Source: a virus
Virus record (IMG/VR): IMGVR_UViG_3300032213_001531
Coordinates: 32,001-96,000 of that record
Direction: 5' to 3' (one strand)
DNA: 64,000 bases
This document shows positions 19,778 through 31,713 of the stretch, piece after piece. A model generated the notes under the pieces. It was not told the DNA's origin. It worked only from the letters and a program-made list of their open reading frames with translations, and did no database searches. The position numbers and the translations under genes are program-made. Numbering within the stretch: the first letter of the stretch is position 1; the number at the start of each line of letters is the position of its first letter.

Positions 19778-22700
19778 TAAAATCTACTCCCTCGAATTTT
19801 TTGTGAATCTATCTGTTTAATTTGAGCCATAACTGATCTAGCAATTTCATCAGGATTCGCATCTGACTTAACGTTTACGCTAATACTATAATTATACACT
19901 GCGTCGCCTACTGAATCTCCATTATTGATTGCTTTCATCTTGTCCGCACCATGAGTGTTAACAGCATACTTACTCATTACAAATTCTCCTGGAGTAAGCA
20001 TTGCTGGTACTGTATCTGTTCCCATAGCATAACCGCCTGAAGCAAAGAACTGAGGAATTAATCCACCTGAAGATTTAGCAGCAAAACCAGTACTAAAGTT
20101 AAACGGAGTAGGCTGGCCATCTTTATAATTAATTCCGTCTTTGTTACCAGTAAAAGGCTCCCAGCTATCAGTTTTTCTTCTATAGATAAGCGCTCCAACT
20201 CCTGTGTCTGTATAAACATCACCATTCTTATAATCATTTCCCCATACTGTATAGCTAGTCTGATTTGGTGATCCAATTAGTGGTTCAGAAAATGTTAACA
20301 TTGTTGCTGGATCATTTGCATTAGATGTTGTACTTGATGTTGTTGAAGAAGATGAAGATGTTGTTGAAGAAGATGAAGATGTTGTTGAAGAAGATGAAGA
20401 TGTTGTTGAAGAAGATGTTGTTGAAGAAGGGGAGGCTGTTGAAGTATTTCCAGATGTTGAATTTTTAGAGGCTATGGCTTTAGCTAATAAAGCATTTGCT
20501 TTTGCTAACCTATCAGAGTTCTTGGCTAAGAGTGCTGCATTTTGTTCTATCAAAGCATTTAAATTTTCTGCAATAGAATTTGATATTGACATGCCTGATT
20601 CAATAAGCTTTAAATTATTTTCTGCTTTAGTAATTGCATCTTGAGCAGTTTGCAATTCTGCAAGCCTTCCCTTATTCATATAATCACCAAAACGATCTGA
20701 CATGTCAGCATAAACTTGTTTTGCGTTATTGACAGCTGCAACTCCTTCATCATAACCTACAGGCTTAGTGTTTGCATTATTATTTAAAGCTGCATCTGCT
20801 GCTGCAAGAGCTGCGTCTAAAGCTGCTGTTGCCTGAGCGTCTATTGCATCTGCTGCATCTTGTGCTGCTTGTGCCATTGCTACTGCTGCTGCAGCTGCTG
20901 CGATGGCAGCGTTAGCTGCATCTTCCGCAATTTTAAGTGCTGCGTTAGCTGCTGCTGTATCTGCGTCTGCTGCTGCTTGTGCTTCTGCAAGAGCTTTTTC
21001 GGCTGCAGCTTTTTCTGCTGCAGTTACTGCCTCTGCTTTAATCTTGAGTGCTGCTGCAACAAGGGCGTCTGCCTCTGCCTTAGATTTTTCTGCTGCAGCT
21101 TTGGCATCAGCAATAATTTTGTCAGCAGCGGCTTTTGCATCCGCAGTAATTTTATCTGATGCAGCTTTAGCATCTGCTTCTGATTTAGCTACATTTGCTG
21201 TGCTTCCAGAATTAGTAACAATGGTTTGTGCAGTAGTCATTATCTTGGAGTCTTTTGCAGGTGTTGCTGCATAGGCACCAATTTTTGTCATAATTGATTC
21301 CCATTGTGCATTGATTGCTGTTGATGCTGCTAATAATGCAGCAAAGGCAGTATCTAAATCTTTTTTAGATAGATCATATGCTTTTACCTTAGCTTCAATT
21401 GCAGCCCAAGCATCTTTATTTTTTCCAAGGACAGTAGTTTCTTCAACTAATTTATCAAGTCTTGCTTGAATAGTTTCATTCTCGGTGTTTAAGGCAGCAA
21501 TCATTCTTTCTCTATCTACAACACTATCTTTAGTAATTTTAGCAATTTCATTTTCATAAGTCCGAATCTGCTTTAAGTTATTTTCTCTTAGCTGTTCTAA
21601 CTCATATATAGTTTTAGTTTTAGATTTAATACTATCTTGAATTGCTATTTTTCTAGGATCTGTTTCTAAAGCGTAAATGTCTTGAGAAATTTGATACTGC
21701 TTTTCTTTAATTTGATCTTGAGTAAGGCCCTGAGTTGCTACAAGCCTATCTAGTTCATTTTTTCTGGCTAGTTCAAAAGATTTTTGTGCTGCATTAGAGT
21801 ATAAATCTGCGCTTGCTTTTCGCATATCCTGCATTGCTTTTCCTGCTGCAGAAATATCTCCGCTAGTTAAAGCATCTGCTAAGCTAATCTGTTTTTCTTG
21901 TTGTGATAAAATTGCATCATTAATCTCTTTAACTGTTGTTAGGGATTCTGCTTGCTGATCGTAACGTTTATTAATTTCTTCTGCAGCATGATTAATAAGA
22001 TCTAAATCATGAGATAAGGCACTAGATTGATCTTGCAATGCTTGAATAGGCTCATTAAACTGAACATCAATTTGATGCTGTAGATCATTAATCTCTTTCT
22101 GATAATCATCAATCTTTTGACTAATATTAAGAGAAACTGCTGCTTGAATATCATTAATCTTATACTGAAGTTGCTCTATCTGTGCTTCATATGGGCGGAG
22201 TTGGCTTTGTAATTCTTTAATCTTTGTCTCATTAGCAGAAAGTTGTGCTACATCTTTAGTGCTTCTAGAATCTACACCAGTCTTAATTAGATCTTCCTGT
22301 ACCGCAAACATTTGGTTAACCATATCAAGACCAGAAGAAGCAACTTGAGCATAGTCTCCCTTGTTAAAGTTGATTTGAATATCAATTAGTTTCTTAGCTT
22401 CGATGTCTTTCAAGAACTCAGAAATTGCTCCTGTTGAACCTTCAATAGCTGCTATGTCAATTTTGCCATCTTTAATGTTTTGGGTGAACTGTTTTAGCAT
22501 TGCAGGGTTTCCAAGTACTGCGTCAATTTGCTCTACAGAATACCCCATAGACTTCATTGCACCTACTACTTCTGGAGTTTTTGCAAATACATCAAACTCT
22601 GCATTCTTTGTAAGGGTGTCAGTTATAACCTGCATCTTTTCCATTGCACTATTGGCTTCAGCAATATCTTTAATAAACTTCTTCATTTCATCTGAACCTG

Positions 22701-25700: not shown

Positions 25701-28700
25701 TTGGAAGCATAGATGCTCCCATAATTGCTGTCATGTGATTAGAAGCAAATTTTCCTGCTGTTGAATCAGGTGATCCTTGTGCAATTCCTTGAGCAAGCAT
25801 AGGAATCATCATGGCTGCCATTCCTACACCCATCATTGTTTGAGATGATTTCATTCTTTGATCTTGTCTTGCATTAATTCTTTGTTCTTTATTTAATGCA
25901 TTACCATCTTGATCGTGGGTTGCAACTTTTCCATACCCTGTCCAATAACCACCATGTGGCTTAGGACCGCTAGGTCCACCAGGACCAGCAGGGCCACCCA
26001 TAGATGACAGGCGAGCATCAATCTTTCTAACTCTATCCATTGCTTTTGCGCTTGCTGATTGAACCCTAGCATTATTTGCAACTGCCTTAGTTCCAGTTAC
26101 TACCGCCGTTCCAAACTTGCTAACTTGAGCTGTAGCTTTTCCAAGTACATCTGCTCCCTTTGAAGGTGGTGGTGTATTTGCTACTGGAGTTGCTCCCCAA
26201 CCATCACCCTTATCAACCATGGTGTATCCAGGAAGAGGTCTTGGAACTCCACCCTTACCGCCTCTACCACTACCATGTTCAGGAATTGTTCCATTAATCA
26301 TTCCTGAAACTAATGAAGAATATTTGGCTGCAGCCTTGGCTGGAATGACTGCTTCTCCAGGAGATAGCATTGCTGGTTGAATATCTCCCGCACCCTTTGG
26401 CCCTGGAACTGAAAAAATTCCTTTTGCTAATGCAAGAGTATCCGCTGGCATATAGTCTGAGTCTTTAAATTTCTGATTCTTGTAATATCCATCATGAATT
26501 CTTTTCCTTAATAAATGTTCAGTAATTATATCTGTAGTTGTCCAAGTGTCTGCTTTATTTTTTGCACCCCAACCTTTATATTGATGTCTTTTACTTTCTA
26601 ATTTACTAAGTGCTATCAATGCTTCTTTTTCAGTTGTTACGTGAATTGCGCCCATCCTTTTTGAAAGTGCATTCATTCCAGAGTTTATAACTGTCTGATC
26701 TCTCACAACATTGTCTGCTGGCCAAAACTCTAAATCTCTATTTTTACCAGTAGCTTTTATATGGCTTGCTGCGATTCCACCTTCGCCAGATCTGACTCTC
26801 TCTATTGCAGTTTGAAAGTCTGGTGCTTTTAATACAGCAAGTGCATCTGCTTCTGAAATTTTTCCAGTATTAACAAGATTCTTCTTTACAGAAGCAAGCT
26901 CTTCTGCATAATAATTTAATAGCTTTTGTGCTGGTTTATTTTTACTAGGGTCAGCAAGAACTTTTTGCCATCTACTATTTACCTCTGGTGGAGTGGCTCT
27001 AGTTCTTGATCCTGACCAAGGATTTACATTTGCAAACAAACCTTTACCAGAAGCTGTTCCTATGTCTAATGGTTTACCGCTTTCTTTATACTTTAAAATT
27101 CTTGCTTCTAAAGCTTTTACTTTTTGTGCATAAATTGTTTTATCTGGATATGCTGCTTCAAACTCTTTCCATCTTCCTTCAAACTTAGCAGCCTCTGATG
27201 CTTTTACGGTCATAGATTGACCACCTATTTGAATTTGTGACATTCCAGACCCAAGGCTACTAATCTTAAATGAGGTGCCAGGAGGTAATGGGGTGAGTGG
27301 TAATCTTGTTCTAGATTCTAGACTAGCAACTGTTGCTGCTTCTTTTGCCCCTGAAACTTTTACTGCTGAAGCTGCGCCGTACATGCCCAGTCTTCCAGCC
27401 ATGTATCCTGGAACTACTCCACCCTTAGCGAAACCATTTCCTTGTGCCCATTTAGAAAAACCTTCCATAAAGTCTTTATCAGATAAGGATGAGGCGTGTC
27501 CCTTTTGTCTTGCTCTTAATGTAATTTCATCTTCTATTTTTTTTATTGCTGCAGGAGTTAATGCTTTCTTTGGATTAGCAATTACTGATGAATGAATCCC
27601 GTGAAGTTCTCTCCAGTTCGCACCCCTAGAATCCTCTAAGCGTCTAACCATGTCTTGATAAATACCCTGCTCTTCTTTATTTAACTTAAATCCTGCTATT
27701 GTTGCTTTAAGTCTTGGAAGAGTTTCATCGATCTCTCGTATCATTCTTGTATGGTATTCTTCTGCAGTCATTCCCTTTGGAATATTAGATGTTGCTTCAG
27801 CAAAGAATCTTTTTGCATTTGATCCCTTTACGCCAAGTAAATTTATACGAACCTGATCTTCAACGGATGGCATGCCTTTTGAATATGTTCTAAAACCAGA
27901 TGCTGTATCAAAGACTCCAGCATTTCCAGCATCAACCATATTTCTACCAGACACATTTGCCATTTGGAGATCTTTGTCTCCTCTTACTCCAGAAGCTAAA
28001 AGTTGTGCAAAGTATTCATCTTCACTAAACTTGCCCGTTGGTTTTGCAAACTCAGGGTTGTAAGGGGCTTCAGATACAATAATTTTTCTTTTCTTTTGTG
28101 GATCCGTTGGATCAATCATTGTACGAATTGTGTGCTCTGGTGCTTTTAGTGGAAAGGCTTTGTTTGTAATAGTAGCCATTCTTTCCTCTGCTAAAGCAGC
28201 AGTCTCATCAACATATGGCTTAACAAATACCTTAGTTCCATCTGGCTTTTGATACAATCCGCCAATTCCTTTAACAGGAAATGAGTGCCCTGTGGTTGCT
28301 TCAAGTTGAACGCCAAAATCTGTTGGATCCATGTTAGCAAATCGACTTGCTTCAGTTCCTTTTCCAATTGACTCCATTGATAGTCTTGCTTTACGTTGTA
28401 TATTAACTGCTTTAATGCTTTTTGGCATACCCAAAAATAGTGGCATTCTTCCAAGTATATGACCTGGCAAAGTTCCGTCAATCATCTGTCCAATAAATGG
28501 TGCATACTTCTTAGCCATGTCAGCAGGAATAACGGCTTCTCCAGGGGTTAGAAGGGCTGGGGTAGTATCTTTATTACCTGTTCCAGGAACACTTGTCACA
28601 CCCTTGGCAAAACGTCTTGGAGGGGTAACTCTGCCCCTGCTTGGCATAAACATTCCAGGGTTTGTACTAGCAAAACTAGACATTGCAACTTTTGCTTCTC

Positions 28701-30618
28701 TGTAAGCATTAGTTAAGGCAACAAGGCTTGCTGACTCAAGGACATATGCGGAAGACAAAGATTTATGGGCTGTTGCAAGACTATTTGATACAGCAATATT
28801 TTCTAGCTCTTCATTGCTGAGGTACTGTGTTCCAAGGGCTGCATCTTTTGATCCATAAGCTAAACCTTGAAAACCTTTACGAATAAGATTAAACATCTTC
28901 ATTAAGTTAGCTAAACCGTTAGCAACAAGACCAACGGTCATAAGTAGAATTGGACCAATACCAGCAACTGCTGCTACAATAATTGCTACTGCTTTTTTAA
29001 TTCCTTCAGGAGCATTGTTAAATTTATCAAACAGCTTAACAAAGAAATTAATAACTGGAGTCAATACCTTTGCAAACAATTCACCAATTGGAGCAATAGA
29101 TGCTTTAAGTTTTTCAATTGCTGCTTGCATTTTATACATAGGAGATGATTCCTGTGTTTTTAATTCTCTCTCAGATAACAGCGCCAACTCTTCTGCAGAT
29201 GCAGATGCCAATTTTAAAACTCTGCTTGCTTGGTTTCCTTCTTTTGTTACGTTATTTAAAAGTGCTGAGATTCTTGAAAACTGATACTTGCCAAAAACTT
29301 TTTCAATTGTTTGTGCTCTTTGTAGGTCTGTTAGTGGTTGTAATGCTTGAGCAAAAGAAACAACAGTATTTTTTAAGTTACCCTGATTGCTTTCAATAAT
29401 TCCCTTAAGGTTAATGCCTAGCTTTGAAGTTGCTTCAGTTGCTGCTTTTGATGGATTAATTAAAGATGCAAGACCAGACTTAAGTGCGTTAGCTCCTTGC
29501 TCTGCACTAATACCACCTTCTTTCATTGCTGTAAGGAAGAATGCTAAATCTTTTACATCTCCGCCAAGCTGTTTAATAACTGGAGCAACTCTTGGAATGG
29601 CATTAGATAAATCTTCAAGGCTTAAAACAGTTTGGTTTTCAACAGAGTTAAGAAAGTCCATTGTTTTAGATAGTTCGCCACTACCAATAGCAAAAGCATT
29701 TTGTAATGCAATTGTTGTTTCTAAAGCTTTGTCTTGTGCAACTCCACCAAGGACTGCTAATTTGTTTGCTTGTCTTACTACCGTATCAAGTTGCTGCCCT
29801 GAGTTACCTGCTGCTGCTGCATCTGCAGCCATCTTGATTGTTTCAGAAACTTTAAGTCCATACTTTGTATACTCTTTAGCAATATCTTTCATGTTTTTAA
29901 GGGCTTTGTCAGTATCATCTTGTGTTGTAAAGATGTCTCCATAAACCTTTTTAAATCTAATTGCTTGAGTTTCAATTTCTTTAAATGCTTTTATTGCTGA
30001 TCCTGCGAACATAGCTAAAGGAATTGTAAAACCAACCATAAGCTGGCGACCAGCCCACTGTGTATTCTTACCAAAGTTTAGAAGTTTTGTAGCACCATCG
30101 TCAAGCAGCTTATTCATTATCTGTTGACGTTGAATAGTCATTGACATTCTTGTTAATGCGTCGTTATAATTAAGTGCTTTTGGTGTAATTCGCATTGAGC
30201 GGATTGCACCCTGTGCGTCTTTACCTAGTTGGACATACTGGCTTTGAAGAGCCTTAACTCTTTTTTCAGCAAGGTTGCTAATTGTTTGAAATTCTCTAGC
30301 GTAATTCTTTCCAAATGTTTTAGTGGAAGCCATGCCATATCGATAGTATTCACGAAGTGATAGCTTGCCAGCTTCCAGACGTTTTGAAAACTGATCTGTA
30401 GAAGTTGCCATCTTGCCCATTGAGGCATTAAACATGCCTGTGGCATTAATGTTATGTAAAAGTGATTTTGAAAAATCGGCTTGAGCTAGTGATGCAGCTT
30501 TTGTGCCGACGATCATGGAACGGTTAAGTGCAGATATCTGCTTGTCTAGCCCACGTAGTGCGGACATAGCTTGTGTTGTATCAATATTAATTAAAATATT
30601 GCTGTTTACATCTGTCAT
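19777..30618 (-). CDS. Tape measure protein, 3613 aa, with inserted globular domains
   Basis: Follows tail chaperones; TP901-type core (GISAEQGANALKS), hydrophobic segments, coiled coil, Ala-rich tract, PA(M/L)L(T/S)PGE motifs. Confidence 0.93.
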   Translation of the reverse strand: MTDVNSNILINIDTTQAMSALRGLDKQISALNRSMIVGTKAASLAQADFSKSLLHNINATGMFNASMGKMATSTDQFSKRLEAGKLSLREYYRYGMASTKTFGKNYAREFQTISNLAEKRVKALQSQYVQLGKDAQGAIRSMRITPKALNYNDALTRMSMTIQRQQIMNKLLDDGATKLLNFGKNTQWAGRQLMVGFTIPLAMFAGSAIKAFKEIETQAIRFKKVYGDIFTTQDDTDKALKNMKDIAKEYTKYGLKVSETIKMAADAAAAGNSGQQLDTVVRQANKLAVLGGVAQDKALETTIALQNAFAIGSGELSKTMDFLNSVENQTVLSLEDLSNAIPRVAPVIKQLGGDVKDLAFFLTAMKEGGISAEQGANALKSGLASLINPSKAATEATSKLGINLKGIIESNQGNLKNTVVSFAQALQPLTDLQRAQTIEKVFGKYQFSRISALLNNVTKEGNQASRVLKLASASAEELALLSERELKTQESSPMYKMQAAIEKLKASIAPIGELFAKVLTPVINFFVKLFDKFNNAPEGIKKAVAIIVAAVAGIGPILLMTVGLVANGLANLMKMFNLIRKGFQGLAYGSKDAALGTQYLSNEELENIAVSNSLATAHKSLSSAYVLESASLVALTNAYREAKVAMSSFASTNPGMFMPSRGRVTPPRRFAKGVTSVPGTGNKDTTPALLTPGEAVIPADMAKKYAPFIGQMIDGTLPGHILGRMPLFLGMPKSIKAVNIQRKARLSMESIGKGTEASRFANMDPTDFGVQLEATTGHSFPVKGIGGLYQKPDGTKVFVKPYVDETAALAEERMATITNKAFPLKAPEHTIRTMIDPTDPQKKRKIIVSEAPYNPEFAKPTGKFSEDEYFAQLLASGVRGDKDLQMANVSGRNMVDAGNAGVFDTASGFRTYSKGMPSVEDQVRINLLGVKGSNAKRFFAEATSNIPKGMTAEEYHTRMIREIDETLPRLKATIAGFKLNKEEQGIYQDMVRRLEDSRGANWRELHGIHSSVIANPKKALTPAAIKKIEDEITLRARQKGHASSLSDKDFMEGFSKWAQGNGFAKGGVVPGYMAGRLGMYGAASAVKVSGAKEAATVASLESRTRLPLTPLPPGTSFKISSLGSGMSQIQIGGQSMTVKASEAAKFEGRWKEFEAAYPDKTIYAQKVKALEARILKYKESGKPLDIGTASGKGLFANVNPWSGSRTRATPPEVNSRWQKVLADPSKNKPAQKLLNYYAEELASVKKNLVNTGKISEADALAVLKAPDFQTAIERVRSGEGGIAASHIKATGKNRDLEFWPADNVVRDQTVINSGMNALSKRMGAIHVTTEKEALIALSKLESKRHQYKGWGAKNKADTWTTTDIITEHLLRKRIHDGYYKNQKFKDSDYMPADTLALAKGIFSVPGPKGAGDIQPAMLSPGEAVIPAKAAAKYSSLVSGMINGTIPEHGSGRGGKGGVPRPLPGYTMVDKGDGWGATPVANTPPPSKGADVLGKATAQVSKFGTAVVTGTKAVANNARVQSASAKAMDRVRKIDARLSSMGGPAGPGGPSGPKPHGGYWTGYGKVATHDQDGNALNKEQRINARQDQRMKSSQTMMGVGMAAMMIPMLAQGIAQGSPDSTAGKFASNHMTAIMGASMLPMILPLLNSPLKKLIATVVALGVSFKMQSMAIRKSIADGVKQGQSIGNTIESLEGFGSILGTMSATQIMDKKREANRLEITPIDQTFGKDFSGSEFGKQFIAEFNTYAKSNGRGAAKQLGTKLASAVSQGVLSADQAESIIVNLARDMGDQSLEIEARGILREIIGPDGKNLKDNPIGVQLKILKNQKQLTTQMQNIFSDVVEKEMGGWFANLMQNVPGAGAVGLRTGINKREGFELAGSTVGGALLGARIASQLDKTGVIAGARSLPAAATFAKESQIAGTLGKARFGAGVIRGAAALGTGASATGAGVLPGAIILATTLAADLALRKYQQGREKKAVGAVAGAVAGNSIQSLAQVQQSMDLLQMQTDAQIEKLTKEKEAVKTAEKRLEIEKKIKDLNDQNLQDQQELRNQGVDVVDRATGFLDNISGKDAKVKYAEAYKTAFDDKYKDAVGPEKLAATELSALLNPDSKLIPKEAGISSEERKELKKQLAESEKRVAEIQARRDSYDSNSGEFTAAQAEYIAEMQNQVRIIQGLKAKTTQDVTKIGVMVQASVVAGDISAGSAKALIENFIATGKNVETTWKLMLGGQGAKEMDSLGWILQNLSDQENINTVVNVAGTFNGKEGPQQAREFYSMLEDFIQFPPEFRIDLNIESDPDDIPVLKKLGKEIDALRKHFPGGKLTKPALIAYQAELKLKGKSPNEALDAAVKNWDLLSSYDPTLQLEASVTLNQLLISDNIQQELNAELINAFKKKGLWKDIPLPLANSAALIQAQIDQLSKANPGIAKSTLDKLLKERLDSIYGPKTADLKKLAAQEAADTLKGAYSFLEDLGMKLKLFRDSAFNALTPLKSIMAIFENSKGAEGGLSRMFAKFKGLQQIMLEGGVSSGLMDAISGMSAEEFEAFKNSDVNPSKKDKQKPFKLDDKGNVIGITEDLLGLSEAFNSVVVGMAQFGAAQSIDNIKKQREAFEILRGAGMSVTDALKVIEDQSLASAIAAGTLGAAGSDEMKKFIKDIAEANSAMEKMQVITDTLTKNAEFDVFAKTPEVVGAMKSMGYSVEQIDAVLGNPAMLKQFTQNIKDGKIDIAAIEGSTGAISEFLKDIEAKKLIDIQINFNKGDYAQVASSGLDMVNQMFAVQEDLIKTGVDSRSTKDVAQLSANETKIKELQSQLRPYEAQIEQLQYKINDIQAAVSLNISQKIDDYQKEINDLQHQIDVQFNEPIQALQDQSSALSHDLDLINHAAEEINKRYDQQAESLTTVKEINDAILSQQEKQISLADALTSGDISAAGKAMQDMRKASADLYSNAAQKSFELARKNELDRLVATQGLTQDQIKEKQYQISQDIYALETDPRKIAIQDSIKSKTKTIYELEQLRENNLKQIRTYENEIAKITKDSVVDRERMIAALNTENETIQARLDKLVEETTVLGKNKDAWAAIEAKVKAYDLSKKDLDTAFAALLAASTAINAQWESIMTKIGAYAATPAKDSKIMTTAQTIVTNSGSTANVAKSEADAKAASDKITADAKAAADKIIADAKAAAEKSKAEADALVAAALKIKAEAVTAAEKAAAEKALAEAQAAADADTAAANAALKIAEDAANAAIAAAAAAVAMAQAAQDAADAIDAQATAALDAALAAADAALNNNANTKPVGYDEGVAAVNNAKQVYADMSDRFGDYMNKGRLAELQTAQDAITKAENNLKLIESGMSISNSIAENLNALIEQNAALLAKNSDRLAKANALLAKAIASKNSTSGNTSTASPSSTTSSSTTSSSSSTTSSSSSTTSSSSSTTSSTTSNANDPATMLTFSEPLIGSPNQTSYTVWGNDYKNGDVYTDTGVGALIYRRKTDSWEPFTGNKDGINYKDGQPTPFNFSTGFAAKSSGGLIPQFFASGGYAMGTDTVPAMLTPGEFVMSKYAVNTHGADKMKAINNGDSVGDAVYNYSISVNVKSDANPDEIARSVMAQIKQIDSQKIRGSRF
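20336..20429. repeat. 21-nt tandem repeat (3 full + 2 partial copies) encoding a Ser/Thr linker in the tape measure
   Basis: Unit gatgttgttgaagaagatgaa, encoding SSSSSTT-type repeats on the minus strand. Confidence 0.9.
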
Positions 30619-30648: not shown

Positions 30649-30975
30649 TTATTCTTGTGAAGCAAGTGCAAGTAATGCTGAATCATTTAGATTGATACCT
30701 GATGCTGCTTCAATGATCTTGTATACTGTTGGCAGATCAACTAAATCTTCCAAATCAGCAACAGAGTAGTCTGCGTCTGCTTTATATTGTTTCATTGCAA
30801 TGTGGACACATTCAATTAGGATGTCCATTGATTTTTCGTTATCTGTTGCTACTGCTGTTAGTCCTTCAAAAGATTTCATAAACGGTCTAAGTAAAGAAAT
30901 CTTAAGTGGCTGTGCGTCAATTTTTGTTCCGTCGATAAAGACGATCTCATTCTTTTCAATTGGCTTAGTTGCCAT
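30649..30975 (-). CDS. Tail assembly chaperone, short form
   Basis: Immediately upstream of the tape measure; GGAGGT RBS before ATG 30975; paralogous to the N-half of the neighbouring gene. Confidence 0.75.
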   Translation of the reverse strand: MATKPIEKNEIVFIDGTKIDAQPLKISLLRPFMKSFEGLTAVATDNEKSMDILIECVHIAMKQYKADADYSVADLEDLVDLPTVYKIIEAASGINLNDSALLALASQE

Positions 30976-31026
30976 GTATAACCTCCTGTGGTTGTAAATC
31001 AATTATACCATAGGCAGGCTTATTTT

Positions 31027-31713
31027 TTAGTCTATTTTTTCGTAAGACAATCCCATACCAATACCAAAACCAGCCTTTTGTGCATTTACTCCTTGCAATG
31101 CTAAAACGTCTTTTGAGTTAGCTGCTGTGCCACCGCTGTAAACTCTAGCTTTTAGCTCTTCCCAGGCATTTCCAGTACTCTTATTACTTGCCTTATCTAG
31201 GTCAACACCTTGCATTGCTGCTAAAAATTTCTGTTCATCGTATCTTGATTCTCTTTTACTTTCAAGAGTTGCTATTAGTTCTGGCATTGATAAAGACTCT
31301 TCTAATTGATTGTAGTCTTTCCAGATGCCCAGCAAAAATAACTCAGACTCTAGCTTTGCTAAATCTAATGTTTCCCAAGAAGATCCACTTTCTACTGCTT
31401 GCTCTTTAACGCTTTGCTCTGAATCTTTATCTACTTTAATACCTGCTGCAATATCTATTAGTTTATATATTGTAGGAAGGTCAAAGTTATCTTCTAGATC
31501 CTCTACCGTCTTTATTTCTGGCATATATTGTTGCATGGCAATTCTGGCACACTCTACTAGATTTTCAATAGTGTCTTGATCCCCTTGAGATTTTCTAACA
31601 ATTTCAAAAGCAACCATAAATTGTCTTAAATATTTTATTTTTAATGGAGTGATATAAAGTGGCGTTCCATCAACTAAATAAAGGACTTCACTATTGTATA
31701 TTCTCGTAGCCAT
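31027..31713 (-). CDS. Tail assembly chaperone, long form
   Basis: Between major tail and tape measure; DGT..PLKI..LR.FM..FE...EDLED..DLPT.YK plus C-terminal extension. Confidence 0.75.
   Translation of the reverse strand: MATRIYNSEVLYLVDGTPLYITPLKIKYLRQFMVAFEIVRKSQGDQDTIENLVECARIAMQQYMPEIKTVEDLEDNFDLPTIYKLIDIAAGIKVDKDSEQSVKEQAVESGSSWETLDLAKLESELFLLGIWKDYNQLEESLSMPELIATLESKRESRYDEQKFLAAMQGVDLDKASNKSTGNAWEELKARVYSGGTAANSKDVLALQGVNAQKAGFGIGMGLSYEKID

Follow-up and report, generated by a model that had tools for sequence, protein, structure and literature searches.

The tape measure protein (TMP) encoded in a 64,000-nucleotide stretch of viral DNA (the window; bases 32001-96000 of the 104,993-bp IMG/VR virus record IMGVR_UViG_3300032213_001531, with an estimated completeness of 97%) was found to contain an internal domain with the catalytic residues and the predicted fold of protein-kinase-like (PKL) enzymes. 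The motif set of this domain is far beyond chance in the sequence alignments, and together with the structural model it indicates that the domain is probably a catalytically active PKL phosphotransferase. By comparison with related TMPs, the kinase domain is an accessory, optional and mobile cassette. On balance, we favour the reading that the region of about amino acids (aa) 743-1030 is an accessory cassette carrying a complete PKL phosphotransferase, which would be delivered with the virion and act on a host target before phage gene expression.

The Gly-rich loop, beta-3 Lys, helix-C Glu, D-x4-N loop and DxG motif that make up the PKL catalytic set were all present, within residues 784-898 of a single 3,613-aa open reading frame (ORF), as a preliminary description of this region had noted. 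The span given there for the domain, 27590-28330, corresponds to aa 764-1009, and the domain defined by homology and by the model is wider (about aa 743-1030). Conservation was measured in an alignment of 130 full-length copies of the domain that were 29-88% identical to the query. The Lys, Glu, Asp, Asn and Asp residues named in that description were invariant or nearly so (Table 1), and G777, G787, P827 and Q872 were likewise invariant. D881 was replaced by Asn wherever it was not Asp (5% of the homologues). The D-x4-N spacing of the catalytic loop is the same as that of protein kinases.

The AlphaFold2 model of aa 740-1035, built from a 35-sequence alignment, had a mean predicted local distance difference test score (pLDDT) of 92.3 and a predicted template modelling score (pTM) of 0.87. 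It showed the bilobal PKL arrangement of an N-lobe beta-sheet with helix C and a helical C-lobe. The placement of the catalytic residues was judged by the secondary-structure elements of this model and is given here in model numbering: the Gly-rich loop lies at the first beta hairpin (strands 48-51 and 57-62), K800 (residue 61) stands at the end of the third strand (57-62), E811 (residue 72) lies within the long helix 66-82, the catalytic loop comes straight after helix 127-140, and D896-G898 (residues 157-159) are downstream of two short strands. When 48,161 PDB representatives were scanned with VIA-align, the top 50 were all protein-kinase-like enzymes, led by CotH (5jda; score 11.8, 218 residues aligned, 3.9 Å) and followed by PI4KIIalpha (10.2), MavQ (9.8), Golgi casein kinase/Fam20 (9.4), CtkA (9.2), HipA (9.1) and actin-fragmin kinase (8.2), with PI3K/PIKK, Rio, Bud32, WaaP and others further down. 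Every Foldseek match in the PDB was also a kinase, and a rescoring of the Foldseek candidates agreed with this picture (PI4KIIalpha 10.2, CtkA 10.2). The best Foldseek match in BFVD was an uncultured-phage protein annotated as "PI3-/4-kinase catalytic domain" (E-value 5.4e-5), and the nearest named clusters of the ESM Atlas were LepB_N, PI3_PI4_kinase and HipA_2, all weak (0.85-0.86). The next BFVD matches, with E-values of 2e-4 to 3e-3 (A0A6J5PWC9, A0A6B9L6W7 from Mycobacterium phage Onyinye, A0A6J5S481 and R4T6E8), were large phage proteins annotated as ADP-ribosyltransferase or portal (fusions) or uncharacterised. Because of these matches, predicted kinase-fold modules may also ride on other virion- or head-associated giant phage proteins.

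The structural neighbours also bear on the nature of the substrate. The domain could be active without being a protein kinase, as a lipid or glycan kinase or another nucleotide-transferring PKL enzyme such as an AMPylase. It would then target a membrane or cell-wall component at the site of TMP insertion, either aiding the DNA channel or marking the infected cell. Lipid kinases come to within about 2 Z units of the best-scoring structure (PI4KIIalpha 10.2, MavQ 9.8, PI4KIIIbeta and Vps34 about 8-9), and the sugar/lipopolysaccharide kinase WaaP scores 6.5; LepB_N and PI3_PI4_kinase are Atlas leads, and the domain is situated between hydrophobic TMP segments. The protein kinases CotH, Fam20, CtkA and HipA, however, score as well or better, and no lipid-binding element was identified in the domain. 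We regard this possibility as quite improbable, and the fold alone cannot assign the substrate because protein kinases score equally well or better.

The cassette nature of the domain was evident from the relatives of the TMP. At least 596 IMG/VR contigs encode close relatives of its N-terminal 600 aa. Among the best 80 of these, 72 were readable for at least 1,100 aa, and the kinase cassette was present in 20 and absent in 52 of them, the latter including 24 complete ORFs of 1,817-2,573 aa. Relatives with equally similar N-termini (67-70% identity) differed in the presence of the cassette, and within the homologue chains its location varied from about aa 720 to 2,850. The TMP of Streptomyces phage Tomas (2,094 aa) matched only aa 55-694 and is without the kinase. 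Since the cassette is absent from 52 of the 72 relatives, an accessory role in host interaction fits better than a step of assembly.

The same counts bear on the possibility that the kinase acts in the producing cell and not in the next host. Its substrates would then be phage proteins of the tail or virion, its own chain or precursors of the host envelope, and it would be in the virion only incidentally. In that cell the TMP is still cytoplasmic, ATP is present and the domain is folded. The cassette, however, is dispensable for tail assembly, as the 52 relatives without it indicate, and the Ser/Thr-rich tract considered as a substrate occurs in just one of 118 long homologues and so cannot be the conserved one; an action in the producing cell is thus considered unlikely. 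This tract spans TMP aa 3381-3444 (window 20287-20478, minus strand), consists of at least 70% Ser/Thr, is encoded by tandem DNA repeats (D2, 20315-20452) and may be a linker or a glycosylation/phosphorylation tract. Its use as a substrate in cis was considered by analogy with CotH and CotB (PMC7821199) and was rejected as a general explanation, the tract being confined to the TMP studied here.

The boundaries of the cassettes usually coincided with a repeated element. A module of about 50 aa with the pattern FAKG..VPG..PAxLxPGEaV (the PGE module) occurs three times in the TMP, once just upstream of the kinase, and the copies were also seen at the DNA level as repeat family D7 (28523-28570, 26339-26386 and 19970-20017; 65-75% identity, the copy at 26339-26386 being 75% identical to copy 1). 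In TMPs that lack the kinase there is usually a copy near aa 685 and a further one towards the C-terminus, and TMPs with cassettes carry an additional copy behind every cassette. The kinase of most homologues is flanked by modules at about aa 665-690 and 1010-1045, and in about 50 homologues a module lies 40-60 aa upstream of it. Of 150 homologues, 68-87 conserve the C-terminal module, which is also present in kinase-less TMPs. The PGE module thus marks cassette boundaries across the family, and a docking, a processing or a recombination site are its candidate roles.

Downstream of the kinase, a second, variable insert sits between the half-module FAKGGVVPGY and PGE module copy 2. It is shared in full only with three to four close relatives, and is weakly related (28-32% over 200-250 aa) to the cassettes of the kinase-less TMPs L092, L095, L096 and L104, which occupy the site after module 1. 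An AlphaFold2 model of this insert (aa 1040-1420) from four sequences reached a pLDDT of 41.6, Atlas scores were at most 0.78, neither of them informative, and Pfam and the Atlas offered no lead to its function. The same TMP site is occupied in relatives by other cassettes, 280-370 aa long and belonging to at least three families, to one of which the second insert is weakly related. Among them are family B (L107 and L110, about aa 705-1075) and family C (L115, L118 and L131, about aa 700-1025). These alternative cassettes had no Pfam match, and their best E-value with the hidden Markov model of the kinase was 0.07, which is no match. The region after the first PGE module of these TMPs is therefore a hot spot for interchangeable cassettes.

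The divergence of the kinase was compared with that of its flanks using the nearest relative (contig 3300034168_000206) and Nei-Gojobori estimates. The two TMPs are 94-100% identical over aa 1-700 and mostly 90-100% over aa 1200-2450, and identity drops to 62-86% across the kinase. The synonymous divergence (dS) was 0.75 for the kinase (aa 740-1030), 0.23 for the upstream flank (aa 1-700) and 0.12 for the downstream flank (aa 1201-2400), and the ratio of nonsynonymous to synonymous divergence (dN/dS) was 0.23, 0.048 and 0.206, respectively. With a dS 3-6 times that of the flanks, the kinase segment has a history of its own that goes further back, and the exchange of alleles by recombination is the likely cause. 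Compared with the nearest relative (L090:6001-13800), the TMP as a whole is a mosaic, near-identical outside aa 700-1200 and with a sharp drop of identity again from about aa 2450.

The dN/dS estimate also indicates that the kinase is under purifying selection, as is the case for a working protein and not for a spacer. This is relevant to the view that the domain catalyses nothing and is a pseudokinase, or serves the ruler only as a structural element or spacer. Such a role would agree with the failure of every active-kinase-family sequence model to recognise the domain, and with the tolerance of TMPs for many non-enzymatic inserts, the cassette families A-C at the same site being without a recognisable enzyme signature. 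Pseudokinases, however, typically lose at least one of the catalytic residues, and here the five catalytic positions and the Gly-rich loop are invariant or nearly invariant over 130 sequences with identities down to about 30%; the overall dN/dS points in the same direction. A pseudokinase is therefore very unlikely, because the catalytic residues are invariant.

A HMMER search of 1.84 billion representatives with aa 730-1100 returned 165 proteins, 139 of them at an E-value of 1e-30 or lower, and all were giant proteins of 2,000-4,500 aa or fragments thereof. The family is large, with 165 clusters at 50% identity, and was found on at least 283 IMG/VR contigs. All 10 representative clusters that were looked up were metagenomic, and the sole informative name was "TP901 family phage tail tape measure protein". 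That the domain also exists in free-standing form was considered unlikely, as short matches such as P0024 (482 aa) start within the PGE module and are probably fragments or proteins called from an internal start. In profile searches, no kinase family was found when 29 family members were scanned singly against Pfam, the CotH family PF08757 had no match anywhere in the genome even at E-values up to 10, and neither PI3_PI4_kinase (PF00454) nor the HipA profiles (HipA_C and HipA_2) matched the domain. The preliminary description had called it a HipA/PI3K-like kinase; the kinase-like fold stood up to structure prediction, as the AlphaFold2 model returned kinases with both Foldseek and VIA-align, and the two named families did not find support from their profiles.

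Several observations speak against an active, virion-delivered kinase. The domain (aa 730-1100) had no meaningful match in Pfam, NCBIfam, PHROGs and the PDB, the last searched with the single sequence and with a profile. The sole PDB profile match, 3jqh (E-value 1.8e-4), was dismissed as compositional, being a repetitive coiled-coil neck. As no sequence model in these databases detects it, the domain is, by sequence, a new family within the known PKL fold, absent from the domain databases searched. An hhalign comparison of the family profile with E. coli HipA gave a probability of 1.3%, which is no argument against the fold because a single-sequence target is insensitive. The family has no cultured member: no match was found by tblastn in 50,697 phage records, nor in a scan of 185,579 species genomes. 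The Foldseek matches in the PDB were weak (best E-value 2.5e-3, template modelling score about 0.3), and N888 and D896 are 8 residues apart, compared with 13 in PKA. There are physical difficulties as well. Three folded 33-kDa domains should not fit the tail-tube lumen of about 4 nm and would therefore have to travel unfolded and then refold. ATP is present only in the cytoplasm, and with a hydrophobic segment on each side of it (aa 544-575 and about 1595-1670) the domain may end up on either side of the membrane.

With these points weighed, we still lean towards the virion-delivered phosphotransferase, for which the following course is proposed. As a covalent part of the TMP, the domain would be incorporated into the tail; we infer its entry into the virion solely from this membership of the TMP chain, and cleavage at the PGE modules is possible. 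At infection it would exit together with the TMP and, once at the cytoplasmic face of the membrane, either fold again or still be folded. Drawing on the ATP of the host, it would then phosphorylate a host protein or an envelope lipid or glycan before any phage gene is expressed, and its role would be accessory, in host takeover or counter-defence.

The assignment of the gene as TMP was supported by its domains and by its placement. The PhageMin_Tail core (PF10145) was found at aa 248-443 (E-value 1.5e-27), and 11 tape-measure PHROGs matched about aa 8-794, the best being phrog_10030 (E-value 2.5e-91). The N-terminal core is 27.8% identical to aa 19-670 of the Tomas TMP (E-value 3e-64), is common to about 107 of 150 kinase-bearing homologues and contains the hydrophobic segment at aa 544-575 (hydrophobic window score 2.55). 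The gene lies between tail-chaperone-like genes and distal tail genes: on its 5' side are two genes sharing the chaperone-like phrog_10504 and a major-tail/Ig-domain gene, and on its 3' side are minor tail genes. The two phrog_10504 genes, at 30649-31002 and 31027-31713 on the minus strand directly upstream of the TMP, look like a duplicated G/GT-type chaperone pair and not like a frameshift pair; the longer one carries an additional phrog_10474 part. Nearly all genes of the window are on the minus strand and the G+C content is about 36%. The best matches were Streptomyces cluster-BE phages (Stanwilliamsviridae, e.g. Tomas), with identities of 46-50% for the portal, 44% for the major capsid protein and 27-31% for the TMP N-terminus, and the gene order is the same as that of Tomas genes 60-65. 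From these similarities and the shared gene order we infer a siphovirus of an actinobacterial host.

Table 1. Features of the TMP gene in the window, in protein order; conservation refers to the 130-sequence alignment of the domain.
Feature	Window position	Strand	Basis or conservation
TMP gene, 3,613 aa	19777..30618	minus	uninterrupted 10,842-nt ORF
Conserved TMP N-terminal core, aa 1-667	28618..30618	minus	alignment to Tomas TMP
PGE module copy 1, aa 668-722	28453..28617	minus	regular-expression match at aa 690
Protein-kinase-like domain, aa 743-1030	27529..28392	minus	homology and model
Gly-rich loop G784-Y789 (GIGGLY)	28252..28269	minus	G787 100%, Y789 97%
K800 in VFVKP, predicted beta-3 ATP-binding lysine	28219..28221	minus	130/130
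E811 in ALAE, predicted helix-C glutamate	28186..28188	minus	130/130
Predicted catalytic loop D881-K-D883-L-Q-M-A-N888 (GDKDLQMAN)	27955..27978	minus	D883 99%, N888 100%, D881 95%
D896-A-G898 (MVDAG), predicted equivalent of the metal-binding DFG motif	27925..27933	minus	D896 100%, G898 97%
Second, variable insert, aa 1040-1395	26434..27501	minus	begins with the half-module
PGE module copy 2, aa 1396-1450	26269..26433	minus	regular-expression match at aa 1418
PGE module copy 3, aa 3516-3575, near TMP C-terminus	19894..20073	minus	regular-expression match at aa 3541

The wider picture, which we put forward tentatively, is that of a widespread clade of uncultured, probably actinobacterial, long-tailed phages that use the TMP as a modular carrier for an active injected kinase of an uncatalogued PKL family. 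The kinase would be threaded down the tail, fold again on reaching the membrane and, ahead of any phage gene expression, phosphorylate a component of the host, such as one of its defences or of its envelope. Previously characterised phage kinases are synthesised after infection (PMC8008677). Of the enzymes carried by TMPs, those known comprise cell-wall hydrolases and the RNA polymerase of a single phage (PMC10770324). If true, an injected phage kinase would be known for the first time, with its alleles swapped as cassettes between phages in an arms race, and an ATP-dependent kinase in the ruler would represent a new class of effector made in advance. How a 33-kDa globular domain is stored in and passed through the tail tube would then be a concrete physical question, and the natural presence or absence of the cassette among close relatives offers ready-made experimental comparisons.

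Among the known systems, the closest structural match is CotH, an atypical Ser/Thr kinase of the Bacillus spore coat (PDB 5jda, PF08757), with which the domain shares 7% identity over the aligned residues; by sequence the domain is no member of the CotH family, and its context differs as well. It differs from PI4KIIalpha, MavQ and the PI3K/PI4K enzymes, and from HipA and CtkA, in its catalytic loop, which reads GDKDLxxxN, where PI3/4-kinases have DRHxxN and HipA has DxHxKN. Cell-wall hydrolase motifs embedded in TMPs are known from mycobacteriophage TM4 (Rpf-like motif) and from T5 (Pb2 peptidase). Like the predicted kinase, these are enzyme modules within the TMP that are dispensable for tail assembly. 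They are used at entry, as is proposed for the kinase, but they act outside the cytoplasm on peptidoglycan and without ATP, whereas the PKL fold is ATP-dependent. Phage kinases surveyed by Benler et al (2021) comprise T7-type kinases, 933W Stk, CotH-lectin fusions and a HipA-like gene in "Gratiaviridae", none of them in a TMP (PMC8008677). T7 gp0.7, 933W Stk and the "Gratiaviridae" kinase are phage-encoded kinases acting on host functions, as the predicted one would be, and differ as free-standing genes expressed in the host and in belonging to other sequence families. Literature searches combining tape measure with kinase (atypical, kinase-like, CotH and protein kinase) retrieved no description of a TMP-embedded kinase. 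The closest precedent for a cytoplasm-acting enzyme fused to a TMP is gp96 of Thermus phage P23-45, a 5,002-aa TMP with an N-terminal virion RNA polymerase; in the account of its authors, TMPs are metastable while inside the tube and enter the envelope by injection (Chaban et al, 2024; PMC10770324). In both cases a giant siphovirus TMP is covalently fused to an enzyme that needs cytoplasmic substrates, and the proposed site of action of this enzyme is the TMP pore, right at the onset of infection. The enzyme of P23-45 is a two-barrel RNA polymerase, is N-terminal and has demonstrated activity, whereas the domain described here has a predicted PKL kinase fold and a predicted activity, lies inside the chain and is optional among relatives.
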